A stretch of 58,070 bases of DNA, counting the filler, from Sluysia triapertura (Eukaryota), in assembly GCA_046118255.1 (NCBI GenBank). It is 4 parts of 4 records of this genome, joined end to end, with 100 filler letters (N's around TTAATTAATTAA, not from the genome) between each part and the next. Parts side by side here need not be neighbours in the genome. Positions count along the whole stretch, not along the records: positions 1 to 14,143 come from JBJNIA010005333.1; positions 14,244 to 33,997 come from JBJNIA010053219.1; positions 34,098 to 46,733 come from JBJNIA010093009.1; positions 46,834 to 58,070 come from JBJNIA010186958.1. One strand, 5' to 3'. Below are positions 12,448-54,459 of the stretch, piece after piece. The position numbers and the translations under genes were made by a program. Below the pieces are notes generated by a model. That model ran no database searches. It saw nothing but the letters and a program-made list of their open reading frames with translations, and had not been told where the DNA came from. The first letter of the stretch is position 1. The number at the start of each line of letters is the position of its first letter.

Positions 12448-13625
12448 TGTAGTGGCCAACACTCATAATTAAAATCTATCAAAATATCATATTCAACATT
12501 CACAAATTAAATTTCACCAAAATTCAAATTTTAAAACAATCACATTTTTTAATATCAAACTACACCAACACAAACACTATAAACAATACTCCATATTTAC
12601 AACATTCCATCAATCTACACATATCAACAATTCAACAAATACTTTTAATCATCCATAGCTCAACAAACTCCAACATTTAATTTCGAACAAATTCACAACA
12701 TTTACTCATAAGATATTTGATCAAACAAATCACAATCAAAATATAAAATACACAAATCATAAACATAACAACATTATTCAACAACGCTAACAAATACCTC
12801 AGAAACATAAATCATTTACATCTAAACCCTTAATCAACTACACCAACCTAAATCCATTTCATTTGCACATAATCATCATTAACAATTACTCGTAATGACA
12901 TTGTAATATACTAAGACTTATTTTGTAATCGTCGTTTAAAATTAAAATAACTTCAACCTTTCATTAAGCATTTTAAACCATTATATCCAAGGCATAGATC
13001 TTATTTTAAATTGCAAATTTTCAATAAATTTTAATAATTTATGCTAAAATTCTTCGTTTCAATTATAACTCAAACCATTTCTCTTATCTTTAGAAATAAA
13101 CATAATTAAGCCTTAAACAATTCATTATCTGACCGTGAAGCAACAACGATAACCGACACTTACTATACCTTATTACCGTTGCTCCCTCATAGTTTATTAT
13201 TTGTTTTTGTTCCTCTTTTATTTTTATCAATTTTATGTGAGAAGGGTAAAGAATATACAGAAAAGATTATGTAACATTTTGAAGATTCATGCGTTTTTAA
13301 GTTTTTACAAAAATAACAATAACAGTAATTTTATCATTATTATTATTATTACTATTATTATTATTATCATTGTTATTATTGTTATTAATTTTATTAAATA
13401 ATTAAAAATATAAGAACCATGATGCGATGACAAAACTAGTTGCTGCTTCACCAACGATAACAGCCTATGTACATTTTTCATTAGACTGTCAGCGTTGATG
13501 ACGGTCAGTAATCAGTCATCATTCGTTGTTTGTTTCCATTAATTCATCTACTAAATGTCACCCAATCAGAGTACAGTATTACAAAATACTAATTAATTAC
13601 TTTTCAATGCTCTGATTGAGTAGAC
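12448..13625 (+). mobile_element. R2 repeat copy A (TGTAGTGG terminus, CA-rich body, twin hairpins)
   Basis: Terminus shared with 14420, 28943, 29124 and 54459. Hairpins at 13448-13501 and 13560-13621. Confidence 0.7.
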
Positions 13626-13719
13626 AACGAAAATAGTATCAACCAAAAATAGACACAATTAAAAATCACAATAAAAATTTGCCAAAATCACATAAATTTT
13701 TAGCACAAATGTAGAACTA

Positions 13720-14143
13720 ATGAAAAGGAAATTAGTTAAACAATGTGGTTAAATTAGTTAAATTAGACGTTAAATTAGTTAAATTAGTTAAATTAGACGT
13801 TCTTCAGCTTTTCCAATATGTGTTTCGCATCTTATCAGAGAACGTTCTGATTTTAATCCGAAATGGTATCATTTTTCAAATAATGAACATATCTGTAATA
13901 TTTTTATGAATGAAACGACATCATCCTTCGATTATGGTATACAATGTCAGGAAATAATGAATTGGCAAAAAGAATGGATTACTAAGTTATGTGATAACAG
14001 TTCGGTTAATGATTATATTTCTAATAAACTATTTTCTACTTGGTGTCAATGTGTTCAGTGCAAAATTTGGAGACAAGTTAGTCTGTCTGTTAGAACAATA
14101 TCTATAGAATTAGAAAGCCTCTTATGTTGTCGTATAATGAAAT
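13720..14143 (+). pseudogene. KDM1B: KDM1B/LSD2-like N-terminal zinc finger plus zf-CW, disrupted and cut off by a gap
   Basis: MKRKLVKQCG, then a repeat carrying stops, then SSAFPICVSH..KWYHFSNNEHICNIF..W..W..STWCQCVQCKIWRQV..CRIMK. Compare recalled LSD2: CPVC..RWYHLSCGEHFCNEC..WVQC....CRKWRQL..CGMK. Confidence 0.7.
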
Positions 14144-14243
14144 NNNNNNNNNNNNNNNNNNNNNNNNNNNNNNNNNNNNNNNNNNNNTTAATTAATTAAN
14201 NNNNNNNNNNNNNNNNNNNNNNNNNNNNNNNNNNNNNNNNNNN
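14144..14243. other. Assembly gap spacer
   Basis: N44-TTAATTAATTAA-N44. Identical spacers at 33998-34097 and 46734-46833. Confidence 0.97.
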
Positions 14244-14420
14244 GAATGTTTGAGATATAGATTGTTTTGTTGGTGAATGTAGGTTGGTAAAGTGTTATGA
14301 TTGTGTATTGTTGTTTTATGGGATGAATTGTGTGGTGTTTATAGTTGAAAAGTATGGTTGTGATTACGGTTATTTTAATAAGATTTATTTTGATCTTGCA
14401 TTATAGGATTGACCACTACA
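14244..14420 (-). mobile_element. R2 terminus, inverted relative to copy A
   Basis: TG-rich stretch ending in GATTGACCACTACA. Confidence 0.7.
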
Positions 14421-17400: not shown

Positions 17401-19557
17401 GAGTCGGAGAAAATGGTAAAGTATTGTCACGAATAATTTTATAAATTTTGCATAAAATTTGTACATTAATTGGCAAGTGTAGGTATACGGTTCATTGCGG
17501 GCGAGTAAAATTGTGGATCACCACTTGTCTGCCACATCCGATTAGTAGCAGTTTCCATCGATTATTCCAAATTTCTTTTACCGACATAGGAATTTCAAAC
17601 AAGAATAAGTCGTAAGTTATTTTTATATAAGTGTCAAAATCAACTGAAAATCCCAATTTTTCATTTTGTCGCTCGAATAAATCTAGCCTTAAAATCATTT
17701 TAAAAATCCGATCACTTAATTAAGCTGTAAAACTTTAATTATTAAATTCAGTATTATTTACTATAATTAATAGCTGTATTATTTTTATCATCGATTATTA
17801 GAATTCTTTTTTTAATTGTTAAGTTCTACGACGTTCACTTTTGTAATATATTCACATACTTGTTTGTTTTTCTCACATTAAAGGAGTGAAATTATATTAT
17901 ATTGACGTCATATTATATTGACATCATAACAGTTATAACCCGGAATTATTTAACATTTTCGGAAAACAATTTAACGTTAATACATAAAAAGGCCAATTGC
18001 CTTATTGACCAAAAGCTAAAGATTCTCGACGTTCAAAGATTAATGAAGACCCTTAAAGTAATAAAAACTCTTTCACTGTGCCTTTCCATACTGTCGAATC
18101 CATAAAAATAAATTCATATTTGCTAACTTATTTTTAAGAAAAACACTAGCAAATATTTGGTACCCGAACTGGGTGAACATTAAGCCAGTTTAAAGTTATA
18201 AAATTAAGCGAAGTTTTCGTTATAAAGGAAAGAAAACTCTAGAAAATTTTATTTTAATTATTCAAGCAAAAGTCTGAATATTATAAGTACTTGTGGGAGA
18301 GATAAATAATAAATAATTTTAATAAAAATCCAAATCAGTTCATGAATTGTTACGCGAATGATTTAATACTTTCGAAAGTTTTAAATTGTTGTTTTATGAA
18401 GAAATGAGAATAAAGTAGAACTAAGAAAAATATATTTTATGCTAAGTAAAAAAAATATGAATATTTATTATTTAAAAGCTTTAAAAGCATAATAAAACAA
18501 CCAATGCAGTAATCCCAAATAAACTACCACTAATTATACTCTTCTTCAACATTGGTAATGGTCTCTATTAAGAATTTCTTGATATCATACAAAAATATGA
18601 TTAATATTTTGGAGGGCTTTAATCTCTTTAACTTTAAGAACAAATTAAAACCAAAGTTATTTATACGGATTAAACCATTATTATTACAATGGAAATTATG
18701 ATAACAATAACTGTAACTCATGATAACTGTAAATTATGATTGTGTGTGTTTTGTCTAAGTCAAATAATTCGTTTAGTGTTTTGCTTATTTATGAAATCTT
18801 AATTTGTGATGGTTGTGTATGTGTGGAGTTCACTGCAAATATGAATTTCATTCGTTTGTATTTTTCTTTGATCGATCATTACATTGAAAAATTGAAATTA
18901 AAATTTAAAATATCGCGTTTAATCAAGAATTTTATCGGAAATTATGTTAAGCTATGTTAAGTTATAGAAATATTTGCGATTAAAATAGGATCGGCAACAA
19001 GAATTGGAATAAGTTCCTGGAACTTCGGCTATCTGGTATTGTGGTTGAAAGAAACCTCAGCTATTCTACTGAACCATTAAAATATAAAATATATGCCGAT
19101 GAAATATCACTCGGATTATGATTCTGAAATAGTTCAGTTTATAAGTGATTATAAAAAGACTTCTGAGGTTAAGTTCAAATAAAACTATCAAATGAGTGTC
19201 ACTAAGAATTCTAACTTGTACCAATGATATTATCATGTATGTAAGAGGAATATCGAAAATGTTAAAGTTTGTGTAATAACCTATAATAATAATAATAATT
19301 TTACAATCTTTGGAAGTTACATAAATGAGATTGTTTCACATCCAGAAAAAACTTAGTGATCAGCTGCAAACTGTTTCAGGTTATTTCGATTATAGGTTCG
19401 AAATACTCAATTTTCTCTTTAAAATACTTATTTAGGTTGTATATAATAATAGTTTATTAATAAAAATAATGTACCCTTATCATTTTTTCGTGTTGTTTGT
19501 ATTTTATTTTGTAATTATATTTTTATCGTCTATTATGTATATGTCATGTAATTCTAG

Positions 19558-20640
19558 ATGGCACAACCCAATGGCAAAATCTTTATCCAAACCAAGGCTT
19601 TTTATGGAGGCATTGACTGTTTCTCTAAACATAATGTCCCTCCTACTTCATTTTTAAATTCTAAGTCAACCCTTAATCCTCTTAAGTCTGAAATTAATGA
19701 AAACTTTGCCACACATCTTTTTAGTCTATCTTCTACTTGCCCATCAGTTACTATTAATTAATTATTGGGTTTTCCAACAAACCACAGTTTTATCATTTTG
19801 GCAGCCTCGCGAGGTGTTCTCAAGGTTACCTTGACAATTGATTCTTCCCCTCTTCTTTTTCGTCCTTGAGATTTGACAATATTGTCCCTAGGAAGTCGAA
19901 ATGATAACTTAATCCTTTATATGACACCGATGTGAAACATTTCGACGCGTGGCAAGAATAATTAACTTTCGCCCATATTCCGTTCTCACCCATTTTTGAA
20001 AACAAATTAATCTTTGTGGCATTTCATCACGTCTTAGATGTCAAAAATGAACATCAAACTATTCAGTTAGGTTTCATGCCCTACCATAGGAAATTTCATT
20101 CTATTGACATCATAAGACCACGAGTTCGCGTCCAGAATTTTTACAAAGAAATACCTGAACTCAACGACCAAAATCTAACATCGGCTAAGAACATTGAGAA
20201 CATTAGGGGCTTTTGGCTCGCATCTTTGCACGATAAATTTTTTGTTTGTCTTTATCCCGAATTAGTTGTAAAAACATTAAATATTCCTTATGGTTGGTTG
20301 AGAAGAATAGTGAACATCACCAACACCAATCTCGCGTGTTTCTCATCCGCCGATCACATTATAAGAGGAAACCAGGTCCTAAAGTTATTATATCCCTTCT
20401 TACCTAAAATGTCTTTTATGAATCTCACTCAGAATTCGATTTTCTTGTTTGATCATCTTAGGGCTAAGGATCCATCTTTCCTACCGAAATGTCTATCTCC
20501 ATCCCTTTCTTTTTCTTCTTTTACTTCTATTCTATCATCTCCTTCTTAGTCTACTTCTACTTCTGCCTAGCTCCATCGAATCCGAATCCACAAGCCTAAA
20601 ACACCTAAAGAAATTTATTTTCCAAAAAAGAAAATAAAAT
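19558..20640 (+). pseudogene. Orphan intronless coding-like region, broken (includes 177-aa ORF 20016-20549)
   Basis: Higher GC than the flanks; ATG directly after TTCTAG; successive ORFs separated by stops. No family recognised. Confidence 0.4.
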
Positions 20641-20660
20641 TTCTAAAAAAAGAAATTTTG

Positions 20661-21873: not shown

Positions 21874-22048
21874 TTTATATGCGCCTCTTTCACGTAATAG
21901 ATCAGCAGCCGTCACAAACTGGTCCACATCATCAATGATATCGTCCACAATAATAGCAATTTTTCCACTGACATCTCCAACTATAGTCAGGGGAGGTTTC
22001 TCTTTAGGCTGCATCATCGGAAGGAGTTCCATGCCAACATGGAGAGAT
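21874..22048 (-). CDS. PRPSAP: PRPP synthetase-associated protein, internal exon
   Basis: AG/GT-bounded exon [63 protein letters not shown] and DDIIDD are PRPSAP-specific (catalytic PRPS has DDMADT). Confidence 0.92.
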
Positions 22049-23240
22049 CTAAAAGAAAAATACTTTGAAAACAATTTTTTCATTCGAATAAATGCTAAAT
22101 AATTAATTTATGATTAATTTCAGTAAAATTAAAAATAAAAATAGTCACTTGAAAACATTAGATCATTTTGAAATTTCTTTATATTTGCACTTTTTAGCAA
22201 TAAACATAAATCAAATGGTTTTTTCGTCATTTTTTGGAGATTGAAAGTATTTAACTATCACCGTAAGATATTCTACAATTTGATGGTTTCGGAAAACCGA
22301 ATAGCTTCAATTCTTAAAACTTCGTAATTTATTTGAAGTTCAAAAAAAGTTATTATACTCTTAAAATCTGTCAAAATAATTGTATAATTTACTAGAATAA
22401 AAATAAATTATTAACGATAGGTTAATCCATTTTATAAGGTCTAACATTTCACAATTGTGATGCTTCATAAAGAATTTATTTATAAAGATTTATCACCTAT
22501 TCATATTATAACGTAGTTAATAAACTCATCGAATTTTTATAGTTATAAAGCATCAGTTTGATTAAACAGCCGGTGGTCTCGATTTTGAGTCCCGATCAGT
22601 CCATGTTATGAAGTCTAACATTATATCTAACCTATTATCCACCAATGTCCCTTCTTTGGACGCTCTTCCTTGTAATACCCATCTTTTAAATGCAAGTTCT
22701 AAATAAAATATATTAAAGAACATGTGAAAATAAAAATGGTATCGGATAAATGTATTCTTTATTTCATTGTTTATTGACATTCTAATAAATTTAGTGAATT
22801 CTAGGAAATAAACCGTGCGACATTTAAATCAAAGGTCGAAACACAATAATTGTTCTTTCGTGAATAATAATAACTTACATTCTTAATTCTAATTTATTCG
22901 GCTGATCGATTATTTATCTGTAGAACAGAAATAGCGGTTCAAAACAAATAAAAATTCATTTAATTATATTTACTTTTCATAAAAATTAAAGTTACGTATT
23001 AATTAATTTTTCACTTATCTACACCTGAATATTTTATTAAAATTCTAAGATCTGTTGCCTCCAAGACATTAACTTCTCTGCAATGTATGCTATGAGGCCT
23101 ATTTCTACGGACTCTACATGACACCATATATAAGAATTAAATTGCATAGTATTGCTACTTTGCTGAAGTCACGCAAATTTTAGTATATTATGAATCGAAA
23201 ATTATGGCAATTATTAATAATTCTTGCTTTCGACGGCATG

Positions 23241-23560: not shown

Positions 23561-25039
23561 GTTAGTCCGAACTGATGTGACATATTCAATAAAATATTAA
23601 AATAAACATATACTTTATACATACCATTTCTTAAGAAATATGCTAATATTTATGATTTTAATCTTGTTTCTGTTTACCTTCTAAGTGTACATTTATAAAA
23701 TTAAATATTAATAACTAGATACAATAAGAAAGTCTAAATTAAGCGGCATATAAAGAATGCATGAAGCATTTAATAAATATATGAATAAAAAAGATCAAAA
23801 CATATTCATATATGGTATGTAATTTTATATTATGTATATGTAGAATCAGCAATTTGTTTTAGTATACAGCTTTACTTTTCTTCAAAACATAATGGAACAC
23901 CAATTGAATAGAGTAACGTTATAAAGTCGAAAAGCAATTTAAAAAATTGAAGATTTTCTGATGTTCTCTATTCTACCTACATTTTAAAGGCCACTTTTGT
24001 TTAAGACCAAATTGATTAAAGAAAGATTCGATTTAGTTATTCCAGAACATAAGTTGATTATCATTTACACGGTTTTATATCTATTGATTTTTTAAAATAT
24101 ATCAATAGTTTTCTATCATTTTTTCTGCATTATTGCAAATTTTTTATTTAACAAATGAATACGGTGTGGAATTCAAATCGTATTTTACCTGTAGAAAATA
24201 AAAATCTATTTTTGTCTCAATTTAATTTACGGAACTTCGTTATTCTTGCTGACGATGGACTAATATTATTTTTCTGTACTAATGATTTGATTTCATAAAA
24301 TGGTGTTAAAAAAACATCGAAAATTAAAACAAAGAAACTTTATTCAATGTGACAAAACAATAATAACTAACATAAATATTTTTCATTTCATAACCAGACT
24401 ACATTGTAAATATGGGACTCAAATGAAATTATTCATGCAGGGTTAGTTATAAAGAACAGCTATTTAATTTGTACACATTTTTTCGTGATAATCAATATTT
24501 TTCAAGTTTCCATCATATTTTTATAAAATTAAAACGTGTCTATTTATTATTAAAAGCAAAAGCTGAATTTTATATGCGGATTTTATAAGCTGCTTTGTTA
24601 ACAAGCAAAAAAACAAAAGTAAATAATTACAATTTACGATTTAATGACCTGCATTCCATTGGAGAGTAAAGGCTAAAAATTAGAATAGATTCGGGAGTTG
24701 ATTTTACTGATAAATAATTTAAATTATTAATAAACCAAAAGTAAACATGATTATTTATTACTTAGTGCAAATAAAAAAGCAAAACAAGACTAGGTTGGCC
24801 CAAAAGTACTTTGTTCGCGTTCTAAATAATCTTGTAACGACGAGGTAACAACTTAATAAAATTTAAATACCAGTTTTGCTGCTAGACACGATTTAAGACA
24901 AGTTCTGAAGTAATCTGAAGGAGCAATGTCTCGAATATGATATTAAATCAAATCCATCAAGATCATCTAATATCTCTTCTGTCTTTTTCAATGCATGAAG
25001 TTAAGAAGTATCTTGCTTAAGTAACACTTTATTTCTGTT

Positions 25040-25320
25040 AAATAAATCTAGTTATCAATCAATAATAATAGCACCAACTATTTTTATCTGATATACCAAC
25101 TATCAAACACAAATATCCTTTTTTTAGTCAATCTCGCCCAAACCTAACCATTCATTTTCACATTCTTGATTACAATGCTGAAGTATTGCATTAAATTTCT
25201 GCTAATTTGTAATCTTAATTTGTAAACTTAAAAATTTGAAACTTAGAACACAAATCTTTATGGCCTCTAAAACGGTGATACTTAGAGACAGCATGGTCAA
25301 TTCTTATTTTTAAACTTTCT
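25040..25320 (+). repeat. R2 internal fragment (same orientation as copy A)
   Basis: CCAAACCTAACCATTCATTTTCACAT resembles 12842 CCAACCTAAATCCATTTCATTTGCACAT. Confidence 0.5.
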
Positions 25321-25930
25321 ATGTCATTGTTGTAACAGCTTTACATTTTATACCAGAGCTGTCTACTTTGCATATCATTCTATGTGCATTTGCTGATGTG
25401 ATTTCTTTTCTCCAATAATGCCGGAACAAGCCATATTTTATTGAAATTTAAAATACAATTAAAAGAACAATTGAAGCGTTCAAAAAATATAGAATACCAC
25501 ATTTTAAAAATTGTATTACAAAAATATAAAATACTTATGGGACAACCTGATAATAAATTACATATAATATACAAAAATGTTGTTAGAAGGTAAAGCATTA
25601 AAAAAGAAAATTCATTAAAATGGATACATGTGCAAGATCAGACTATATACAATATTCAAAATCATAATATATTACATTTTAAAAGTATTAAATTTATTAA
25701 AATTAATTTTCATTCAGAAACTGTAAAAACAAAAATAAATCAAATAATTGTTAAATAACATTAGCAGGAAATATTTTATTAAAAAAACCATAAGATAATA
25801 CATGCACTAAATTATTTGATTAAGATGCATAAATTAAAACCAATAACTTCATAAAATAAAATATGGCAGGATATTGTTTTATAAGAAATTAAATGTTTCA
25901 ATTAATGTTTATTTTAGGATTAGTATTTAA

Positions 25931-26083
25931 CACGTTGAATGCCACGGGGATCACCGGTGACCTCAGTGAATTAACTGTTCTGTTGTAAATAATATTTCAT
26001 CAAAATAAATATGCAACACATAGTGAGAAATTCATTTTGGCCAGACGGGCAAGCTATGTAAAATCAGCGTGGCATTCAACGTG
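25931..26083. mobile_element. piggyBac-like MITE
   Basis: TTAA TSD; perfect 16-bp TIR CACGTTGAATGCCACG; subterminal palindrome TCACCGGTGA. Confidence 0.9.
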
Positions 26084-26102
26084 TTAAAACTGAAAATTGT
26101 CT

Positions 26103-27725
26103 TTATTGTGATTTTAGTGGTATTGTTTTAATGGCCTGACACCAATTTGGTAATGTTGTTTTAGATTCCAAATTTAGTAAGATTATGTTCAGGTCCTTAC
26201 TCCTATTTGATAAGGTTTTATGACTTGATAAGAGTTTGTTATGATTAAATTGGAAAAGATTGAAGCTTATGATATTATCATTCCGTGGGTATAAATGTAT
26301 CGGTTCATAATTCGTAGGACCTACTCTTACTTGATAAAAAGTACCTTTAAAACTATAAATGTTTCTTATCAAGTCTTTGCTCATAATATTAATATCATAA
26401 TTACCATAAAGGGAACATTTATTAAACACACAAAATGCAACTTTAAGCAAATTACATATAAAATTAGACAAGGAATAAGTACATTTCAAATTTTTATTAA
26501 ACATAAAAACTAAAATTATTATATTTACCGATGCATCCTCTTGTACATCAGTCTGCCTCGCTCTAAAGGTATCGTCTGAATAAAATATAATATTTAACTT
26601 AAAAAATGAACCAAAAAATAAAAATTTACGATACATGTCGTGCCAGCATAGCGATAATCGTCTGCACTCTGAATCAAATTAGTACTCTTCGACCTGCGTC
26701 TTGTGATACGAAGTATAACTGACTGATTCAATTTAACTGGAACAAGACAATATATTTCATGTTTAACGACTAATCGTAAAATAACGGGATCATAGGTAAG
26801 ATTGTCCAGGTAAGTATTTACAATAGATATTAGAGTACAATTAGCTAATCGATCTGAGATAATTTCATTAGTTGTATTGATTCGAACATCAACTTTACAG
26901 ATGAATTTATTTTGTCGAATTATTTTACTCAAATTAAGAGGATAAATCAAGTAATATAAACTACTACAAATGATGATAAATCTAGAAAGTATTCTTTAAA
27001 ATTCATAAAGATTTATCACACATTTTATTTTTACAGGACATACTATTGAATGACTTAATGATCTTAGATTAATTGCAAATATAAATTTAATTTCATTTGG
27101 TATCTTTAAATATCTGGAACAATACATCAAAACTAAATCGTATAACTTTAAACTTAAAACAGATATATAACATTTACAAAATCTTGAATTAATACTTGAT
27201 AATGAACATGATGAATTAACGATAGTGTTTTTGTAAATAATTCTGAGGTATTTCCAATATTCATTTGATAATAAAAACTCAATCATAATATCATCACTTT
27301 TACTGGGATGGAATGTTACTACTAACTTTACGATTTTATTATGTTTCGAAAAGTCATTCAAAGAGAAAACTGTGATAGGACTAACAAATTGAAATTGATC
27401 ATGAAGGAATTTTCTAAATTTATGAATTAATTTTAAATCAAAAACACCAATGATTCGGCCTGACTCATTTTCTCTATTATTAAGTGTTATCTGCGTCTCC
27501 GAAATTGTCATAACTAGATCGACATGGAAAATGAATACCACTGTTTGATGACAAACATGTTTGTGTTTGTTTATAAGCTATTCTTATTTCTGCTATCTTT
27601 TTAATTGAAGAATCATTATTTTCGACTTGTTTCAGTTCTTCGGCTAAGGCTTTACTTGAATCTATCATTTGTTCGATATTAAGATAATTATCTGTGGTCA
27701 ATTTTGAATTTTTGTACTTTGCCAA
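26103..27725 (-). pseudogene. Unknown gene, frameshifted or stopped, retaining an intron
   Basis: Four adjacent ORFs (81, 181, 118, 177 aa) with an in-frame TAA at 26996 and a frameshift near 27540. The GT-AG intron 26576-26634 joins frames correctly. Confidence 0.55.
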
Positions 27726-27824
27726 ATTTTTCGAATATAAGAAATATTATCGTCCGCTCTTTTTTTGATTTTGCTTTTAATTATTTATTACTATATTTTA
27801 TTTTTAAAAATTTATTTTTTTTAG

Positions 27825-28943
27825 ATGGTGACCAGTGATTGGTCATCCAACCAGAATTCTCTATGTGCAAATGAATGAAATCAATTCTGGTCGGATGCCA
27901 GTTACAAGAACAGAAATTTAGTAAAATGGTAATGACGAATTATTGGCCATCATTAGTATTGACACAATAATGATGTTTGTGATTAGCAATGTCAACACTG
28001 GTGATGGTAGTAACAAATTATATTATTTTGTGAAAATTTAATTAATTTAATGAAATTTTATAACAATAATAACAATGTTGTTATTATTATTAATATTATT
28101 TTTCAACAAAAATATTAAAAATTAAGTTTAATATTAAAATATTAAGTTTCTTTTCTTTGAAGCTTAAACATGATCTTACTATCTTTTTCTTAATTCTTAA
28201 CATATGTTAGATCTAGATGAAATGAAAAATGATGAATTTGGATGTAGTAACAATAATAAGATGCACGATATTCTAGTTATTGTTATTGCATTGCATAAAC
28301 TTGAATTCTTTAAAACTGTACACGATCTTCCTTTAATTCTTCTAGATTTCTAACATATTTTGAAAGTAATAATCTTGGAGTACAGATTAATTTGAATGCA
28401 TTTGTATGTGTGATTAACGTCTTAAGTTATAATAGTATTTGTTATGCAGTGCAGTTAAATGTGGAACACTGGAATGAACTTTTAGATAGTGACTTATGTT
28501 TCTGATTAAGGGTGTATTTAAATATTGGAAGATCGTGAATAAAATACCTATTGAGAAGAGTGTAATTTGGTAAATGTAAAAAGGCAACTACAATACAACT
28601 CTTCGTATATTTAAAATATTATTGTGCAATGTTTTGTGTTATTTGTTTATTTAATGTTTTTGAATGGTAATGTATTGTGTTGTTGGTGATTGTGCATAGA
28701 CAAATGGTGAATTTAAGATGTTTTAATTGATTCGAAGGTGTAAAGTAGATAATTTACATGTTTTAGGTAAATTTGTTGGTGTAAGTTGATGGTATTAAAT
28801 GTAACTGTGGTTTATATATTATGAGCTTGTGAAAATGCTTACTTTAGGGAAATGAACTATTTTGTAAATGCGTAAATATTGAGGTGTTGAAGGTTTCATT
28901 AGTTTTTTTGAAATTTTAAGAGTTATGAAGGATGTCCACTACA
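27825..28943 (-). mobile_element. R2 repeat copy B
   Basis: Hairpins at 27844-27897 and 27946-28008; body aligns to 53640-54400; ends GTCCACTACA. Confidence 0.75.
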
Positions 28944-29123
28944 TTATTTTTTCGTGTTTATAATAATTTTATTTCACTTAATTTTGGGGAATCCCCACTA
29001 TTTTAGTTTAAATAATTTTTAATATATTCTCTTAAGTGATATTTTGGGGACGAATTAAATAGCATTCACAGGAGATTCCATTTTCAATTTCGTTTTGTTG
29101 AGTCTCGCTTGGTTTGTTATTCT

Positions 29124-29260
29124 TGTGGTGACCAAACTAATTTATTAAAATTTCATACAATTTATAGCATAACTTTACAATTATTCACCAACCACACAAC
29201 TTTAAATATTAAGATCTTATAATTTTAAAATCCATTCAGCGTAAAATCTACAACAATAAA
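29124..29260 (+). mobile_element. R2 terminus, truncated
   Basis: TGTGGTGACCAAAC followed by CA-rich sequence. Confidence 0.45.
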
Positions 29261-33842: not shown

Positions 33843-34097
33843 TTTGTTCGGTTTTAATACGACCTGAACAATTATGAAAAAATATTAAATTTATACTTTG
33901 GGTCCGCCTACGTCAAACGATTTACCTATAATGGACGTCTGCGTAGGATTTTAAAGCTGTGAAAAATACTAGTGCAAGAATACTACGATTTTTATCTNNN
34001 NNNNNNNNNNNNNNNNNNNNNNNNNNNNNNNNNNNNNNNNNTTAATTAATTAANNNNNNNNNNNNNNNNNNNNNNNNNNNNNNNNNNNNNNNNNNNN

Positions 34098-34336: not shown

Positions 34337-34436
34337 GTAAAATATTATTCATGAATAATAACCAATTGAAAATATTCTACAAATAGTGTAAAGACTTTTG
34401 TCTTCAATATTTTTAGTCATTCTAAAAACAGACTTA

Positions 34437-40699: not shown

Positions 40700-41668
40700 T
40701 CATCATACTTAAAATGATGGATTTAACTTTAGTTTTCGGAAATCAATTAATTTTCACTTCCCCAAAGTCAATTTTCTAATGGAAAATATTTAAGAATCTC
40801 GTTCCAAACACACAATCTCACAAGCATTTCAGCCTCATTTTCGAATTTTCCTGTTTAATAGCAACTATTTCACATTCAATTCATCATCTTTTCATCATTC
40901 TAAATATGAAAAATTCAACATTTTTTAATTAAAAATTTATTAAAATTAATTAAATAAGGAGGTTTTCTTCGCACGAACTCGGTCAAACCTAAGCAGAAGA
41001 TCTCTCTAATACGCATATATTCCCAGTTACAATTTTAATATGACATTCTGCATTCAGAAGTTAAAAAATAATTTTTCTTAATTAACATTTTAATTAATTA
41101 ATTAATTATTCTAACTTAATTTTATTTTATGTTTAATGGTTTTACTATGATTATAAAGTTTTTAAGGCTCTCAGAGGGTTCTATATGTTTTCACCTTTAC
41201 CATTCTGATTCATTTTCCTACTTTTTTATGTTAATTATTAATGTATCAAATTTATCTTAAATATCATTAACAATTATTTTAATTCTTGAACATTATAAAG
41301 GTTTCAAACATTTTACAAAATTACTCGAAGGTCCCAAAAGTTTAAAAATGTCTCGAAGGTCCTCAAACGTTCCAAGAGATCAATTAGGTATCAAATGATC
41401 CTAAAGTTCAGAAGTTCCGATGTATCTTCATACTTAAAACATCTTTCCAAATCCTTCTTAAGCCTTCATAAGGTTCTTTGGAACTTAAATTTATTCTTCG
41501 GTTTCAAAATGACTGTAATCATTTTCTTCTTCATCATTCTTGCTCTAGCATTATTTAATTTTGTTTATATTATTATGTTTCATATATTTTCTACCACTTT
41601 TTCTTACATACTTTAAATGATCTAAACTTTTAGCCTATTTTCTATTCACGAACTGGGAAATCCTAATA
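40700..41668 (+). mobile_element. R1 near-full-length diverged copy
   Basis: Colinear with 56470-57550 (GAACTCGGTCAAAC; TGTTTTCACCTT..TCTGATTC); ends GGGAAATCCTAATA. Confidence 0.7.
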
Positions 41669-41669
41669 G

Positions 41670-41790
41670 AATGTTGTATTTTTCTGACTTAGAATGATGA
41701 AAAGACAATAAATTGAATGTGAGATGATTGCTATGAAAGAGGAGAATCTGGGTGTGGTTTGTTTGAGAATCGGAAAATTGGAAATCGGAA
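41670..41790 (-). mobile_element. R1 inverted fragment
   Basis: GAGATGATTGCTATGAAAGAGGAGAATCT..GTTTGAGAAT matches 278-345. Confidence 0.7.
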
Positions 41791-44700
41791 ATGAATTGAA
41801 TTCTAAAAATCAAAATTGAATTTATTATTTTTGCGCATGCTAACAATACTTGTAATTGGAATTTTAATGTGATAAATAATTTAAGTAAATGAAGATTGAG
41901 TAGAATTATGTACCCAATAAAGTTGGACAGGCCGTACCATGAAATTGTCAAAGTTATTATTGTCGGTTTAATTCTCAATGAATGCTATGATGATTTGAGT
42001 AAGATAATGTTTGATTTTAAAACTCAAGAATGATTGAGTGTTGAGAAAGTATAAAATGGATTACTTAAAGGTTTTACATCACAATAAATGACAAGAGAAG
42101 TAGTGGATACAAAGTGATTCTTTGATGACTGAAGATCCATGAATTAGGTAAAATTTTAATTTTATTATTTTAATTTTATTTACTTATGTTTTTAAGTAAT
42201 TTTAATTACGTTCATGCATTACTACCTGAATTTTAAATATTATATATATTAATTAATTCTAGATCCATGCGTCGATGAAAATTTTATTTTATTTTATTAT
42301 TTGAATATTTTTATCCTGAATAATTTTGTTTTCGGGAAAGCATTTTTAGTAAAGGGTAATTTTATTGTTGTTGCGTAACTCTTGGTTCATATTTTAAATT
42401 ATTGTATTGCTAACATTATTTTAAAACTACTTGTTAATTACCAAGTTTTAATTTATATAGATAACAGTACATAAATATTTTAAGTGCTCCGAATATTAGA
42501 CTTTTTATTAAGATTTATTGTAAGGTTAGTTGGATTTTCTTATTTCAATTGTGCAGTTACAATATTTATATTATATTGAGAATAATTAAGTTTGATTTTA
42601 TTCTGATTTGTAAAAATTTTGAATTTAAAGTTAATATAGAAAATTTTAATCAGATTAAAGATTTAAGATTATTAAAGTCGAAACAATAATTCACCCTATC
42701 TTTCATATTCGTAACAATGATGTAATAACAAAATCAAATGAATCCAAAATTTCGATATATTTTCAATAAAATATACAAATTCTCAGTATTCATTAGTTTC
42801 GAATTAATCTTAATTATCTGTTATGTCTTTTACATATTTACTTTAATTTATCAAATTACAACCCAATAACTAAACAAATTCGCAATCTCGATTTATTCTT
42901 TAATAAAAACACAATTATTCAATACACCTCTATTATACAGATAAAACAGATTTTTCTTTAATAACAAAATGTCTTTTATTATCATCTTAAAAATAATAAA
43001 CCTTTTAATATTAAAACATCACTATCAAGTGTGACAGAACACAAATAAGGTAAATGTTGACCTCCGTATTAACTAAATTATAATAAATGAAAAACATGCT
43101 ACTAACCCTTTTTCCTCAATTTCACCGTTTAGGCAGCGTCCCTAAAGCTAAAAGTTTTAAATTTCTTTATTGTATTTTCATACTTTCGTTTTATTATTTT
43201 TTTCTGATTTTGTGCAAAAATATGACTGCTTATGCAGCAGTTTTACGATAATTTTTGGGAAATTGAAAATTGGACAAGACGAAAAATAAAACTGTTCATT
43301 GTTTTAGTCGGCGTTAAGCCGACCAATTTTACTGATTAAATTTCGACAGTAATTTCCTCCTGTATTATTATCTAAAGACAATGGGATTTGTGGTAAACAA
43401 ATATCTTTTCAATATCATTAAATTAACATTTAATATCATTATTAATATCATATTGCTATTGTATCAATAACACAATTTATTAACATAAATTAAGAATAAA
43501 ATTAATCAAGCAATAAATTTATTTTTCATAGAAATCTTTGATATAATATGCTGTATAATAAGTTGCACGTCAAGTTCAATAATATATTTGGATTAGTATC
43601 ATCTTTATAAACATCAATTTAATATATACTTTATTAATGTTTAAACATCGGAACTTATTTAACTTTAGTTTTAAATCATAAAAACTAATTAAAATAACTA
43701 ATTTTACGCCATCTGCGTTGTCGTGCTTCATAAAACTTTATCATTAAAAATACAAATAAAATTAATTATTATACACTAAATCTAATATTATTTTATGATG
43801 ACCAAACATTTTTTATTAAGTTATCAAATTAAACAATTTTTAATTAAAGTAATTAACAACTGTACTTTAATATTTTAATTCATTAAGACTGTTCATTTTT
43901 AAAGAGTATTAATTAACACTAAATTTTATTATTAGAGATTTTGTAAATTTTAATTACTACAAAAATTTATAATAAACTTTTATCGATGTAAATATTAATT
44001 TTAAGGAATTAATATTATTATTTATCATCCATTATTATAAAGAAAAGTCTAATACTACTAATGTTATATTATTTGAATTTTATATTGAAAGTATTTTTTA
44101 CAACGAAAAAATATGGTATATGCATATTTTAACAATTACGTTAAAACATTTGCAATTTCTTGATAAACACATTATTGTATTTTGTAATTTTTGCTTTAAA
44201 CATTTTATACTCAAACTTTAGTAATAATTAATTGGCTATTTAATATATTTTCATTTCATTTGGTATATTTTGAAAAATAACCGAACTATTAATAGCATTT
44301 CTCTTAAAAATTAAATTGTGTTACACTTAGATTATATAAATGAGAAATTGAACAAAGAAATCTTAACGAACTCTTCTTTCTTGCCTAGTTAATCCCAAGA
44401 AAATCAAACAAATAAATCTTAAGAATCGTATTGACAATTTAAATAGATTTAACAAATCTTAAACTATATCACACAATAAATATTTGAATTTCTTTATAAT
44501 GAATTCAAAAATATTATGAACAGATCCTTTTAGATCAGATTCAAATTAAAAAATTTATTTAAACTCGCAATAATTAGCGGAAAGAGAAGCAACAATTATC
44601 TTTCAACTCCAGTACTGGCATTTTTCTTTAAACACTGACATCTGTATATCGGCCCTTAAGTATGTAAGCCGGTATCATAGAGGACTCACACATATAAATA

Positions 44701-47099: not shown

Positions 47100-47650
47100 T
47101 TTTTCTAACCTTGTCTAGACCGTAAAAGGCTAAATTAATTTTCATTCAAAATATTAAAAGATACTAACTGATTTAACATCCCTTAAGTATTTTTAAAATA
47201 AATATTTTTATTTATTATTTTGGTTATACAAATGTATATAAGTTTTAATTTACTTTAAGCTTTAAAATAAACCTTACTAGTTATTTGGTGCTTTTTAGAT
47301 TTTATTAGGGAAAATAAAATTATCAGTGTAAACTAGACCGTATCAGTCAAGTTAAACCTTCTCGAAAAACTTAAAATTACTACACCGCAAAAGGCTAGTT
47401 CAACTAAACTTCATACTAGACCTTACAAAGGCTGGTTCAAATGAATCCTAACACTAGATCATAATACGACTAATTAATCTAAAGCAAAATATTTTCATAA
47501 TTTACCATATAAGTGAATCTTGTAAACAGTTTACTTAACCTTTGCTGAGTAATTCTTTTGAAATTCGCTTTAAATCCTAATAACACGTCTTCCACGTTGA
47601 TATAAACCGTGTGTATTAGGTGAATTTGACCTTCAATTTTGTAAGATTAA
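47100..47650 (-). repeat. R3 inverted copy
   Basis: TATAAACCGTGTGTATTAGGTGAA is the reverse complement of the 31690-31720 motif; repeated CTAGACC. Confidence 0.65.
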
Positions 47651-48689
47651 GAATAAGTTGAGCTTCTCTTCATACAAAAATCGTGCAAATGCCTTATTTG
47701 TTAAAATATTAAAGTACATTTATTAATTAATTTAATTAAAAATTGTTTAATTTAATAATTTCGTGAAAAAATGTTTGTAGATGGTAAAATAACATTAGAA
47801 TTAGTATTAGAATTTTATTAATATTCTTAATGATGAAATGTTACGAAGCAGATAACGTAAAAATTAGTTATTTTAATTAGTTTTATAATCTAAAATTAAA
47901 TTTAAATATGTTGTAATATTTAAGTATAATTTAAGTATATATTAAATTTATGCTCATGAAAATATCGACGCGCAACGTAGTCTTGATGCATGTTGCATTA
48001 AATAAAAGATGTTATAGAAAAGAAATTTGTTATTATATTACTGTTAATACGGGCGATAACACTTATCACCCCTGAATTTTTATAGATTTAGTATAAAAGA
48101 CAGTGATTTGAATTTATATATTGAAGGTCTATTGTTATAAAAAAGTAGTTGATAGTTTATTGTGATAATTGAAAAACATATTTAGATTTACTGCTTTAAT
48201 GTATAAGAAAGTGATTTATAATTTTGAATATGTTGTGATTCAATTTAAATGATATATTTAAAGTTTTTGAAAAAAGACGCAACAAATAGAAGACCAAAAA
48301 TCTTCTACAGTTATAACTTATTATCGATATTAAAATTCTTTTTAATATTGTTGTATTGAATATTAATTTGAGTTTTGTTTAAGTCCAGGATATTAGATCC
48401 CTCAGTAAAATACTAAAATCTTAACAGTCATCCATAAGCGCTTGCACTAATAGATAGTTAAAAGATTTGTTTATATTCATCTCATAAATCAATATTAAAA
48501 ACATTAAAGTCGAATAAGGTAGAAATTGCAATAAACGTCAGCGAAAACATCTACAGTTACGTCTCTAAGTTAATAGTATAAATCGCAAACTACAGGCAAA
48601 ACCTTACATTCATTTTGCAAAAGTTAAAGAATATGTAAGACTTGCACTTTCAATTTAGAAATATAATTAATATACATTCATATAATTTA

Positions 48690-49272: not shown

Positions 49273-50419
49273 CTTTAGATATAAAATAAAATAAAATCAT
49301 ATTACTTTTTTATTTATGAAACAAATTCTGAATTATTTTTAAATGCTATTTATAAATTATAAACAAAGTAAAAACATTGAATATTTGATTTGTCTCAAGA
49401 ATGATCCAATTGAATGTATGGATAATATTTAGTGAAACTAAATGCATGACAGATCCAATAAAATGAATGTCTCCAGTAACATAATACTGCAGTTACGAAT
49501 CAAAGAAAATTTCATAATAATTAGAGAAAATATTCAATGGTAAAAATCTTCTTTTAATTAACTACCAATGGAGATTTAAAAAAACTAAACGTGATTAGAA
49601 GACAAAATTAAATATTATGCTTTTGACATTACATCTTATACCTTCTTCTTCTTCATTCATGATAATCATTAGCAATTCCAATGAGTTTTATTGTTGGAAT
49701 ATAATATAAATTTCCTCATTGGAAATACTTATGATTACAACTTATCTATATAATAATTTTTTCTTTAAATTTTCTTAATATAAACGAATATAATACAATT
49801 TATTACCATTAAAATAATCGATGGTACTATCAAATTTGTTAATTAAAATGTTTCATTCATAATTTACTTAATGTTATTGAAAGACAAAAATGCATTAACA
49901 AAAAAATTAAAATTATATCGAGATTTTAATATATAAAATGCATATTTAAAATTAAACCAAAATTAAAATACAATTTGATCAAAATACAAATCCTGATAAT
50001 TAAAAGTATAAATATAATCATAAACCAAAAGTACTACTAACTACAAGTAGGATGACTACTTTAAGCGAACTGTTTCTGTATTGTGAAGTGAAGTCTGAAC
50101 TTAAGGAGTTAAAAGTACACATTTTAATACTTATCATAAATTGAAGCTTCAAACCTCTATAGCCAAATAATATATCGAGTAATAAAATAAAATTCAGTAC
50201 ACAGTACAATAAAAAGTACCAAGCATAATTTTATAAATTTCATTTTGTTTAATTATTAATTTAGTCATTTAATAATCACATTTATTAATTGTTAAATCCA
50301 AATAAAACGTGTTTAAGTTATTCAAGATAAAACTAAATAATATTCTTCATATTTACAGATAGTACTGTCCGTAATGTTTCAATCAACAATTTACTTGTTT
50401 GTGAATCTGGATACTTTGG

Positions 50420-50750
50420 CAATCTCATAAAATTCATCACACCTCATCACATAAAAACATTTCACATATACACAGATCATTAAATAAACTACTAAACTCA
50501 TTCAAAAAACAAACATAACCATTGCACATAATTGTCATGAACTACAGCTATCGTTATTGCAATTCAAATCGTATTACAATACAAAATAATTATAGTCATT
50601 ATTGTCATAATATGATTATCAAATAATAACTTTTATAATAAATTACATACTAAATTTCATACTAAATTTCATATCAACATCGACAATGCCATTATTAATA
50701 AACATAATAACCACGTTATTGTTATCATTATTATTTCTTTTATCCTTAGT
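50420..50750 (+). repeat. R2 internal fragment (same orientation as copy A)
   Basis: CA-rich; CTAAAC..ATTGCACATAAT shared with 12820-12875. Confidence 0.5.
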
Positions 50751-51964
50751 ATCAATCTTTCACCAAAGAATTTAATATTTTATAACATTCAACGTGAATA
50801 TTTTTTTAAATATAATTTATTAAATGAATGAAATAAGATAATAATATTTAATCTATATTTCAATATTGAATTAATTTTACAGCATAAATTCAAGATTTGG
50901 TTTATACCTGAAAATAGAATTTCATTTTAAAAAAAATTAATATTTTGGTTATATGTTCTCGTATTTATCATTGACTCATATTCATATTTGTCTCATGCTT
51001 ATCATTATAGTATTTCGAAATTTGTATGATTCAATATATGGTAAAATTTTCGCGAATTTTAGTATTTTAAAATTTATTCAATTGAATATTTTATGCTTGA
51101 CATTTTTTGGTACTTATATATCAACAGTTTATATAATAAAATTTGGACGATTAGTGCTGTTATACTCTTATACTGTAAGAACATTTTTACGTTTTATTTC
51201 AGTGTTTTATTGTGTTATAAATAAAGGTTTAAATTTTATCGTTTTTGTTAAATCGTTAATCGAGTTCACGTGATTCAACCATTATCGAATATTTCATTAA
51301 CCCGTTTTTTCTGAGGTTCCATAACTTCTTTAATATCAAATGATCGTAATATTTATGCTAAATAAAAATACAAGAGTTATACCGGATGACTTACAATCTC
51401 AGTCTTGTCAATTTGTAAATTGCTTGCTTAATTGTAAAAATTCCGAAGAACTAATTAACATCGTACTTCAAGATATTGAAAAAGAATTATATAATTATAT
51501 TTTCCAGAATAATAGTGATACAAAAACTTTTTGTAGTTAATCTTATATTAAAGGATAAAGACGCATTAGAGCTATAACACCAAAATTCTAGAGATGTAAC
51601 AAACAATACGTTACGTCATGTAAACGATTTCACATCACACCAAAAAGGAAAAGAATTTAAAAATTTTACATTAATTAAGGGTTCCGTTGATCAAGAAAAT
51701 TTTAAAATAGTTACTGACTCTTTCGAAAATAAAACTAAATTAAAGATAGAAAAAATGCCATGTAAACGTAGTGCAGTTGTACCTAACTATTCACTTCCGA
51801 ATAAACAAATAAATTATGTATTAAGATTTATAGACGAAAATAGAGTAATAAAGAAATAGAAAACGAAACAAAGAATTAAAAGTAAAATTTATGTACTTTA
51901 TGTTATTATTATTGTTGTCACCATCACTATTACGTTAATTTAAAAAAATCAATTTTAATTTCTG

Positions 51965-53450
51965 TCATTTGGTGACATTAATTGTGTGTATGTCATAATG
52001 TGATTTTGGTATTGTTTGATTGTGGGTTATTAGATTTATGGGACTCCAATTTGATAGTTTTATATTCTTTATTGATTTTAATTTTAAGTCAAATAAAACT
52101 TTACTTGAATTATTAAATGTAGAATCTTTTAAATTATTACATGTCTTATCATTAGAAAATTGCAAAACATAATCAAAAACAAGTTTACAATTATACTTTT
52201 ATTAAACATTATTACATAAAAAATTTTTAATTTTTTTGTTCTTATTCCACGAATGTCACGACCCATTTTTGAAAGTTGAGTCTAAAATAAAATGAAAATT
52301 TAGGTTATATACAGAGTGAACAAAAGAAATAATTACATTATGCGGATCCCATGAGAAGTGTAACGTCCAAGCGAATATGTTTCGGTTTTTAAACAGAAAA
52401 TAGTCAGTATATTTAATTTTAATAGAATTAAATCTGGTATTATTTTTGAATACATAAACTTCTAGTAGATACTCAAACATGTTTTTGCGTAAATTCCATA
52501 CGGATATTTTACCATTCATGAGTTGTGATAACATCGTGATAATATCATTAATATAATTAAGATAATGAGCAATTTTACTCGATTTATCTTTTTTGGACTT
52601 GGTATAAACAATGTTTATTTTATGATTCAAAACTTTCGATAAAACTAACAAATTTAAAACGTATATAAAAAACAGATGAATGACTGTAAACATAAGATTA
52701 ATAGTTTTGTTGTAATTGTCAGAATGAATGAGATCACTTACCGCATGATGTACAGAGTTACCACTAACATTTATTTTATTGTTACTATTCAACGCGAAAT
52801 AAAATAAATAACTACGATACGTTATTATTGATTCATTACAAAAAGATGTAAAATGATCGATTAAATATGCCACACTTGGCAAAACATTGTCTTGTGTTAT
52901 ATACTTTACATTATCTTTACCGTAATGCAGATAATATCATTGTCACGACTGTAGCCTTCAGAAAATCAATCCAGATAATCATAAATTCTTCGACGTTATT
53001 CATTTGACTTGATGTAGTAGTACTCCTTTTCTCTTTGGGCATATTCTCTACAAGTAATTGAGAATCGAAAAATATATATCTAACTAGAACGTTCGTTATT
53101 AATAACTGAACTTGCTCTTTAAAAAACAACAAATGATTACTAAATTTATAAATTATATCCAATGATACAAAACTATAAAATTTAAACGATTCTTTTATCA
53201 ATTCTAAAACTGAAACTATATGTCCTGGATTGCGTATGAGAATTGAATAGTGTCGTTGTAACACTCAAAATTGATACATTTAAATCTTTCAAGTACGTCA
53301 ACTACTAGTAAACTAATTAATTCGCTGGTACGAAAGAAAATTCCATTAAGAAATTAGATATTTGGCAAATAGAATATTGTTCTCTAAATAACTTTTTAAT
53401 TTCATTTAATTGTGATTTTTCATCCATGTGGCATTAATTTTTGTAACTTT
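51965..53450 (-). pseudogene. Unknown gene, broken into several ORFs (115, 208, 66 aa)
   Basis: Adjacent minus-strand ORFs separated by stops and a frameshift; no family recognised. Confidence 0.45.
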
Positions 53451-53549
53451 TCTATATTCTCAACAATTACCGTACTTGTAATGATCTGATCAGCTGCAGA
53501 AAAAATTGTGTGACAACTTCAGAATTTCTAAGATGTATATTGTTCTGAT

Positions 53550-54459
53550 TTGCTGTCCAGTCAGGTGTAAAATTTAATAATCAGTACAGCACTGATTGGA
53601 CAGTGAATATTGAAAATAATTAAGATAATCAAGTGATGAGCCACCATCAGTACTGACACAAATCTATTTACAGTAATGAGCAATGTCAGTACTGGTGATG
53701 GTAGATACAATTTTTATGATTGAATAAAATTATAAAATTTAATGTTAATAATAACAATAATGTTGCTGTTATTATTAACACATGAATTCCTTGTATATTC
53801 CACACGAACATTCTTTTTCTTTAATTTCTGACATTTTGAATTCAAACTGAAAATAATTAATTGAGTATAATAACAATAATAATAAGAGGAACGATGCTAT
53901 AATTATTATGGTTATTAAACTACATAAATTCTTAAATTCTTTTAAAACTGAACAGGATCTTGCTCTAAATGCTTTAGATTTGTAAACATATTTGAAACTA
54001 AAAAATCTTTAAGTAAAGGTTGATTAAAGTGAATGTGAAAAAGATAAATTATAGTACAAATTATAGTATATTTGAAAGGTTATTATTCAATGTTGATAAT
54101 ATGATTTGTTCTCTTTCTATTTTTAAGTGATATTGTCTTTTGTGCTGTTAGGGATTGTGTGATAACAAATGATGAATTTAAAATGTTGAAATTGATTCGA
54201 AGGTGTCGGGTGGCTAATTACGGATATGGTTGTAATTTGAGTGTTATGAATGTTGAGTAACATATTTTTGATGGATCTATTGATGTAAATTGATGGTATT
54301 GGATGTAGGTGTGATTTGTATATTAAGAGATTGTGAAAATGACTTGATTTTGGTAGATGAACTGTTTTAGTAGGTGTATAGAAGGTAAGCATGTACATAT
54401 TAGGGTGAAGAGGATTATTTTTAAGAAAATTTCTATAACATTAAAGGTTGACCACCACA
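53550..54459 (-). mobile_element. R2 repeat copy C
   Basis: Hairpins at 53553-53603 and 53641-53701; body aligns with copy B; ends GACCACCACA. Confidence 0.75.

Follow-up and report, generated by a model that had tools for sequence, protein, structure and literature searches.

The repeat family R2, found in a stretch of 58,070 nucleotides of Sluysia triapertura DNA (the window), combines a terminus and a twin-hairpin module, both conserved, with a different reading frame directly behind each of three copies; one of these frames is host-like (KDM1B). The link between repeat and broken genes is real and nonrandom and is consistent with a mobile element having carried genes; the matched far ends that would prove it are absent. 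The copies and fragments are the following.

12448..13630 (+), R2 long copy A: TGTAGTGG terminus, a C/A-rich, G-poor head of ~450 nt, a (TTA)n tract, and twin hairpins
13447..13626 (+), hairpins H1 and H2 of copy A, with CCAATCA at 13562
14244..14420 (-), R2 terminal fragment B: cut off by a placeholder gap, resembles E more than A
27832..28943 (-), R2 long copy C: twin hairpins, CCAATCA at 27842
29124..29260 (+), R2-like terminus D: 180 nt from C and back to back with it
53545..54459 (-), R2 long copy E: an internal deletion of ~140 nt relative to C, twin hairpins, CCAATCA at 53599

An earlier note on this DNA had claimed TGT(A/G)GTG(G/A)NCA termini at five places, and all five are present, with TGTRGTGR-type words at 12448 (+), 14420 (-), 28943 (-), 29124 (+), and 54459 (-) for A to E, respectively. 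In 200 local shuffles the motif, which was itself derived from the hits, had a mean of 0.165 and a maximum of 2 matches. The 200 nt behind every terminus are rich in C and poor in G (C minus G of 27 to 45). A, C, and E are mutually homologous across 0.9 to 1.2 kb with 59 to 69% identity, and this similarity ends at H2. Against composition-preserving shuffles (12 per pair), the alignment z scores were 12.1 for A-C, 20.6 for C-E, and 4.5 for A-E; BLAST identity was 58.7% for A-C and 67 to 69% for C-E. D has little likeness to R2 past its terminus (z of 4.2 with the terminus and 1.7 without it), and a search behind D for a clear or decayed reading frame gave no support for one.

Beyond what the earlier note had reported, two long hairpins (H1 and H2) and a CCAATCA box lie at the inner end of all three long copies. 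The stems measure 17 to 25 bp, and the folds had z scores of -3.1 to -5.1 in 12 of 12 cases. Compensatory changes altered both sides in 5 of 18 H1 pairs, a count equaled in 1 of 500 shuffles and obtained from only three sequences, from which the structure itself was derived. CCAATCA is not enriched in the window (7 observed versus 5.5 expected), and only its placement in the three copies is notable. All six hairpins folded better on the strand opposite the cargo; the G-poor skew of the element predicts the same, so we give this no weight. A microRNA reading of the hairpins was rejected: the stems are pri-miRNA-like, yet the putative seeds vary from copy to copy. Over R2, Rfam gave nothing above chance-level hits, and the single match in a scan of the window was a tRNA. 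The hammerhead ribozyme core motif, CTGANGA, is absent from both strands of A, C, and E, unlike Penelope-like/Terminon repeats. R2 motifs had no matches in metagenome and viral contigs.

The sequences behind the long copies are these.

13720..14143 (+), KDM1B/LSD2-like N-terminal fragment behind copy A: zinc finger and zf-CW region, ending at the gap
26103..27746 (-), cargo B, behind copy C: broken gene with one frameshift and one stop in 326 codons
26576..26629 (-), probable phase-0 intron of cargo B: 54 nt, GT-AG, with a second predicted donor at 26528
52256..53480 (-), cargo E, behind copy E: broken gene, ~390 codons spread over several frames

A stop-free frame of at least 100 codons begins 167, 258, and 286 nt past the inner ends of A, C, and E, respectively, an adjacency with a probability of 0.047 per random point and ~1e-4 for all three. 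These are three different broken genes, each in the same orientation as its R2 copy and less than 290 nt away. The earlier claim that the inner end of each full copy abuts a different broken gene therefore holds for A, C, and E, and it fails for a K2P channel fragment, which has no R2 upstream. Random orientation of R2 relative to its neighbors, named in the earlier note as a possible refutation, is at odds with the same figure of ~1e-4. The long frames (226, 195, 193, 191, and 183 codons) exceed the shuffled maximum of 163.

What are these genes? The KDM1B-like frame matched PDB entry 4gu0 with an E-value of 2.5e-5; it is damaged by a tandem duplication at 13729-13796 and has lost several aligned cysteines. 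Of the three cargoes that the earlier note took for host gene pieces, this one alone is host-like. The host origin of cargoes B and E is unproven because neither has a detected homologue, and both may instead be fast-evolving ORFs that belong to the elements themselves. A phmmer search with cargo B against 1.84 billion representatives returned no hits, a PDB sequence search found nothing for cargo B or cargo E, and a protein atlas search with both gave weak matches or none. NCBIfam had no matches for the cargo frames, the cargo proteins had none in metagenome and viral contigs, and no protein similarity was seen among the cargoes or with other regions. A word-indexed protein search was blank for the KDM1B-like frame (43 candidates), cargo E (750), and a CTNNBL1 exon (121), blanks that weigh little since two of the three queries have known homologues. 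Single-sequence structure models (pLDDT of 33 and 42) were too poor to inform, and a fold search with them gave no match at an E-value of ≤0.001.

Cargo B had also been said to keep an intron, implying capture at the DNA level. The 54-nt GT-AG intron is plausible: its excision would bypass an in-frame stop, and the GC content along cargo B around the putative introns alternates (46/16/43/15%). The step to DNA-level capture depends on predicted splice sites in a gene without a homologue; taken as predicted, the intron-like gaps favor a DNA route for this cargo. No intron-like gap was found by reading in the frames after A and E or in the first 1.1 kb of cargo B.

How did one repeat come to stand before three different genes? 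Our preferred reading, held tentatively and with less than even confidence, is that R2 forms the left end, promoter included, of an old mobile family with TGT ends, in which passengers differ by copy and the right ends would have been lost or would be unlike the left ones. The family would most likely be a nonautonomous DNA transposon of the DDE/integrase type whose ends are short or asymmetric. Because the inner ends carry no second terminus with a target site duplication (TSD), the reading frame appears to lie inside the element. A, C, and E may be separate subfamilies that diverged while active, because the termini and the base pairing were kept while the remainder drifted by 30 to 45%. We hypothesize that the hairpin/CCAAT module is the promoter or leader of the element and that host sequence replaced the internal region in gap repair after excision, which is the Pack-TIR route. 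This replacement would have placed the passengers under the hairpin/CCAAT promoter, and the copies would have been mobilized by an enzyme supplied in trans and then have decayed.

Should R2 be a gene carrier, it would mean that in an invertebrate long coding regions were captured repeatedly, and in a set orientation, behind a single conserved leader; the animal Pack-TIRs described so far are mostly single-copy relics. Should it only have inserted in front of genes in decay, R2 is just another repeat without annotation. The covarying twin hairpin offers a precise means of locating both the family and its autonomous partner genome-wide. A bolder idea, which we consider quite unlikely, is an undescribed lineage of animal cargo elements with the terminus-to-hairpin cassette under selection and the payload slot repeatedly swapped for whole host genes. 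Its payloads would run from the coding start and include a chromatin regulator, and the lineage would be a natural gene-shuttling vector with asymmetric ends, not a bag of gene scraps.

On the preferred reading of R2 as a left end, a right end was sought inward of A, C, D, and E as ACA plus a TSD of 4 to 9 nt with at most 4 mismatches to the terminus; none was found over a reach of 14.7 kb for C, 7.6 kb for E, and 4.9 kb for D, and decay could mask one. At 7 kb inward of C there is an exon of the host gene PRPSAP. A Pfam scan of 29 + 24 + 114 sequences (part of 477 frames of at least 36 amino acids) contained no transposase or integrase.

Gene-capturing terminal inverted repeat (TIR) elements, or Pack-TIRs, have already been described in animals, including Drosophila Ssk-FB4 with TIRs of ~700 bp and a TSD of 9 to 10 bp; their definition requires TSDs, a known parent copy, and transposable element sequence flanking the cargo on each side (Tan et al. 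2021, PMC8277862). R2 shares with them nonautonomous TIR-type ends beside putatively captured host sequence, but it is one-sided here, has no TSD, and has no parent copy found in the window. It differs further in its 30 to 45% divergence between copies, a different long passenger in each, and the conserved hairpin module. The ends of Ginger and Gypsy elements follow TGTNR (Bao et al. 2010, PMC2836005), and so do 5 of 5 R2 termini, a likeness to Ginger1 and Ginger2/Tdd. According to the same paper, Ginger1 and Ginger2 have paired TIRs of 40 to 270 bp, a 4-bp TSD, and a preference for CCGG/CCGT or RTATAY, and Ginger genes can contain introns and host-like accessory domains. In contrast, R2 has no integrase-like transposase in the frames scanned, no such paired TIRs or 4-bp TSD, and outer flanks without either preference. 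Like the Caenorhabditis msft-1 MULE and the Mavericks that bear cargo (10.1101/2022.07.12.499685), R2 has an apparently exchangeable, sometimes intron-bearing passenger beside a long left end; unlike them, it gave no Pfam match to pPolB, integrase, ATPase, capsid, or MULE transposase inward of its ends and has no near-identical second TIR.

It is unlikely that R2 is instead the 5' long terminal repeat (LTR) and leader of an LTR retrotransposon, with the hairpins as packaging-type signals and the passengers as mRNA copies acquired via template switching. The TGTNR termini, the G-poor, A/C-rich sense strand, and the position of the hairpins directly upstream of an ORF agree with this, as do the uninterrupted frames of 1.1 to 1.2 kb in cargoes B and E compared with ~70 to 270 nt for host exons in the window. 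Such a mechanism has been reported in animals (Tan et al. 2016, PMC5131818), and R2 resembles the LTR-mediated retrocopies in having an element 5' end followed by a long, sense, mostly intron-free host-like frame. However, no TGG able to start a primer-binding site occurs from nt 6 to 1299 of A or at a shared position, there is no conserved purine tract, and no direct-repeat second LTR lies downstream of C or E, where PMC5131818 expects two LTRs. The seemingly intron-bearing cargo B also speaks against an mRNA copy.

That nothing is carried is likewise unlikely: R2 would then be an element complete in itself at ~1.1 kb, akin to a solo LTR or a MITE, or else a promoter module that was duplicated, and it would have landed just 5' of genes, resident or duplicated, that decayed later. 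Strong targeting would be needed to produce a fixed orientation and a distance of <290 nt in 3 of 3 copies, and A, C, and E have no inner ACA-plus-TSD end or inverted terminus, although the end of similarity at H2, the lack of a far end, and the presence of further decayed genes that follow unrelated C/A-rich tracts (K2P, Cys/Met-lyase-like, and after F, see below) all suit this explanation. Solo LTRs with their own TSDs had been listed as another possible refutation; no TG...CA with its own 4- to 6-bp TSD was found for A, D, or E, and C gave AT-rich 4- to 6-mers at nonhomologous places.

The model of the earlier note, a symmetric Pack-MULE- or foldback-like element in which two long TIRs face inward (A-B, G-C, and F-E), is distinctly improbable. 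It involves these further features.

14144..14243, placeholder gap of 100 nt: 44N-TTAATTAATTAA-44N, a palindromic six-frame-stop word; the same at 33998 and 46734
25047..25250 (+), G, the partner of C proposed at 25040: C/A-rich tract that follows a terminus-like word with 3 mismatches
50350..50800 (+), F, the partner of E proposed at 50420: C/A-rich tract that is at best distantly related to R2 and lacks both the terminus and the hairpin module
51250-51860 (+), decayed frame of its own behind F

In favor of the model, A faces B and the two agree at ~17 of their first 22 nt, G opens its tract with the terminus-like word, F shows weak similarity to both E and B (z of 3.2 to 3.7), and G-C and F-E would each span ~4 kb. 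The arms of one element are expected to be each other's closest match. Here, the nonpartners C and E reached z scores of 16 to 21 across separate alignment tests, whereas G proved unrelated to C (-0.8, -1.3, and -1.4 in three tests) and F was marginal against E (1.4, 3.5, and 3.2 in three tests), with z scores of at least 3 also attained by unrelated C/A-rich tracts in 5 of 54 tests. The paired-arm layout is contradicted because C and E match each other best, not their proposed partners, and because G and F have neither terminus nor hairpin module. A and B (z of 1.8, below the 6.0 of B-E) are no more alike than other pairs and straddle a placeholder gap whose fixed length says nothing of the true distance between its sides. 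The outer flanks of A and B do not repeat, and the TSDs that the model places outside the pairs were not found. Moreover, the nematode MULE described with cargo has TIRs that are 870 bp long and 96.7% identical (10.1101/2022.07.12.499685). What survives of the proposed Pack-type gene-duplicating element is the nonrandom link to broken genes, which fits carriage by a mobile element; its two matching inward arms do not. Two candidates were rejected: G as a TIR arm, having no homology to R2, and a hairpin resembling H1 at 51900-51995, which was considered as a partner arm's inner end (fold z of -0.6 and -1.1; alignment z of 0.1 to 1.5).

Least probable is a rolling-circle element (Helitron/Helentron-like) that bypassed its hairpin terminator and transduced the downstream gene: neither TSD nor symmetric ends would be required, and the microsatellite and stem-loops at one end of a noncoding repeat tied to gene duplicates recall the nonautonomous Helentrons DINE-1/HINE (PMC4067079), but R2 has a TGT end and no 12- to 15-bp subterminal inverted repeats (none in A or E, only 2-mismatch candidates in C), the bases preceding TGT at the five termini (G, A, A, T, and C) are not the TT target or A|T, and the stems of 17 to 25 bp are far longer than palindromes of 5 to 10 bp.

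One further decayed gene had been put forward as a possible R2 cargo at 3720.

3253..3760 (-), K2P channel fragment: frameshifted, excluded from the R2 set

The C/A-rich tract upstream of it is not R2 (z of -0.7 to 0.7). Decayed genes behind such unrelated tracts comprise this fragment, a Cys/Met-lyase-like frame, and the frame after F. For the region 24500-31000, no RNA run is listed as containing its words, and one public sequencing run (X1) contains a fraction of 0.61 of them.

R2 is a real, old and structured repeat that is tied to different broken genes, and it behaves as an end of an element carrying genes would. The five termini described in an earlier note were confirmed: TGTRGTGRNCA occurs five times in the window, at exactly the reported positions (copies A, 12448, +; B, 14420, -; C, 28943, -; D, 29124, +; and E, 54459, -), against a mean of 0.165 and a maximum of 2 in 200 shuffles, with a motif that was itself derived from the hits. 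Independent of the choice of motif, a C-rich, G-poor tract follows every one of the five. Because such tracts align through composition alone, homology was scored against locally shuffled sequence. Copies A, C and E are homologous across 0.9 to 1.2 kb with 59 to 69% identity (z values of 12.1 for A-C, 20.6 for C-E and 4.5 for A-E). Copy B is a 177-nt stub, ended by a gap, whose nearest copy is E (z 6.0), and D has little resemblance to the others past its terminus.

Two long hairpins (H1 and H2), unnoticed in the earlier note, terminate all three long copies, and beyond the second the similarity drops to background. Over 3827 scanned 90-nt windows, the hairpin sites of the long copies take second, third and fifth place for stability among the listed groups, and 12 of 12 folds have z values of -3.1 to -5.1 versus dinucleotide shuffles. 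Both sides have changed in 5 of 18 pairs of H1, a count equalled in 1 of 500 shuffles and lower in slid controls; it comes from three sequences only, from which the structure was also derived, and correction of inverted repeats at the DNA level can look like covariation. For the inner module, a covariance model recovered only the three copies used to train it, on both strands (next E-value, 0.046), and Rfam returned no match for the hairpin module. The sense strand carries CCAATCA, presumably an NF-Y box, within or adjoining H2 in A, C and E; the word is not enriched window-wide. The most stable hairpin of the whole window, at 57961-58050, adjoins a TTAACCC word and is possibly a transposon end.

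The earlier note also saw a different broken gene abutting the inner end of the full copies, and for A, C and E this holds. A frame of at least 100 codons begins 167 to 286 nt past each inner end on the same strand, with a chance of 0.047 per random point and about 1e-4 for all three, and these frames exceed the lengths seen in shuffles. The frame behind A (13720) is similar to human KDM1B over the zinc-binding region at its N terminus (E-value of 2.5e-5); it has decayed, since its start is disrupted by a tandem duplication and several aligned cysteines are substituted. Cargo B, the frame behind C (26103-27746, -), is broken by a single frameshift and a single stop. Toward its 3' end it has a plausible intron, a 54-nt GT-AG segment whose excision avoids an in-frame stop; a second donor is present too, and GC content alternates (46/16/43/15%) over this region. 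Cargo E, behind copy E, spans about 390 codons that are spread across several frames, and no intron-like gap interrupts it. No relationship was found between cargoes B and E, and several protein searches detected no homologues of either; the sole strong negative is the blank phmmer result for cargo B, and blanks of the word-indexed search are weak because it also failed on two proteins of known family. Directly beyond the end of cargo B lies a small MITE-like element (25928-26087) with perfect inverted ends and TTAA on both sides. The K2P fragment, suggested as a possible further cargo, is preceded by a tract that is not R2. Because termini and pairing are intact in copies 30 to 45% apart and the adjoining frames have few lesions, the data suggest that A, C and E diverged as active subfamilies and not via decay of a single insertion burst.

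What kind of element would R2 belong to? A search inward of the copies, over 1.7 kb for A, 14.7 kb for C, 4.9 kb for D and 7.6 kb for E, found no terminus-like ACA end with a target site duplication (TSD), and because the inner end lacks a closing terminus, the frame behind R2 seems internal to the element. We tentatively favor a reading in which R2 forms the left end, with the promoter, of a non-autonomous DNA transposon whose ends are short or differ from each other; host sequence would have taken the place of its interior during gap repair, the route proposed for animal Pack-TIRs (PMC8277862); we infer all three of capture, mobilization and promoter activity. TGTNR ends typify the integrase-type elements Ginger and Gypsy (PMC2836005). 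In the 167 sequences scanned with Pfam, which cover a part of the 477 frames of at least 36 amino acids, neither a transposase nor an integrase nor a reverse transcriptase appeared. An LTR plus leader with template-switched retrocopies, of the LTR-mediated type in PMC5131818, fits the long open frames, but neither a primer-binding site nor a second LTR was found, and we consider it unlikely. Rather unlikely, too, is a self-contained element that landed ahead of genes, which would have the far end missing, as it is, but for which there is no inner end.

The symmetric Pack-MULE of the earlier note, with inward-facing R2 pairs bracketing captured genes, is improbable. Two arms of one element should be mutual best matches, and the pairs are not supported: C against its proposed partner G (25040) gives z values of -0.8 to -1.4 and E against F (50420) 1.4 to 3.5, versus 16 to 21 for C against E, while A against B, between which a placeholder lies, gives 1.8 and has no TSD. 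Unrelated C/A-rich tracts also reach values of 3 to 4, in 5 of 54 tests. F, perhaps a remote relative of R2, has no terminus, is followed by its own decayed frame, and at 50404-50576 aligns with a tract on the minus strand at 18682-18817 (66%; BLAST E-value of 3e-11), a match not above z 3 versus local shuffles. A rolling-circle element (compare PMC4067079) is very improbable. The membership tests run place R2 in none of the Pack-TIR, Ginger, LTR and Helentron families.

Animal gene capture by TIR elements is already established, with 370 Pack-TIRs over 100 genomes, few of them multicopy (PMC8277862), and cargo-bearing MULEs and Mavericks are known from nematodes (10.1101/2022.07.12.499685). 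Burro, Terminon and IS481EU, as described in PMC6431247 and PMC10045372, are no closer match to R2. Among the papers listed by a narrow literature search and judged by title and abstract start, none reported a KDM1B-capturing transposon.

The evidence base is the window plus public protein and RNA libraries. GC content per 1-kb bin is 19 to 32% across the window, and its spliced host-type exons, of CTNNBL1 (Pfam E-value of 1e-15) and PRPSAP, mark the source as an AT-rich eukaryote, most probably an invertebrate animal. Between its four pieces stand 100-nt placeholders of one and the same make, with 44 N on each side of a palindromic word that has stops in every frame; their length conveys no distance, and neighbors across them may not adjoin. 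The other features are as follows.

898-1864, +: CTNNBL1 exons, intact-looking (Pfam; exon borders judged by eye)
434-580: MITE-like element with TA flanks, ahead of the CTNNBL1 exons
21875-22056, -: single, well conserved PRPSAP exon (PDB E-value of 7e-22)
1-353, 33546-33844, 40518-41358, 41670-42187 and 56269-57289: second repeat family, C/A-skewed, about 61 to 86% identity
31549-31854, 43535-44027 and 47463-48023: third repeat family, 65 to 79% identity
56570-56642, +: tRNA (Rfam, 44 bits)
55357-55671, +: decayed frame with a weak Cys/Met PLP-dependent lyase match (Pfam E-value of 9e-4, TIGR01328 E-value of 2e-3, both below cut-off)
39022-39926 (-), 19962-20549 (+) and 37321-38137 (-): long open frames with no Pfam match

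One 55-nt CTNNBL1 intron is nearly pure ATT repeat. A rough motif search found no further PRPSAP exons within the window, and the lone exon reflects either very large introns or an orphan exon. The lyase-like frame sits after a C/A-rich tract; the decayed genes at 3253-3760, 51250-51860 and 55357-55671 are each preceded by such a G-poor, non-R2 tract, which hints at additional leader-plus-gene families. The tRNA lies within the last copy of the second repeat family, apparently as an insertion. In the same family, 40518-41358 (+) opposes 41670-42187 (-) about 300 nt apart, an inverted pair better than every R2 pair.
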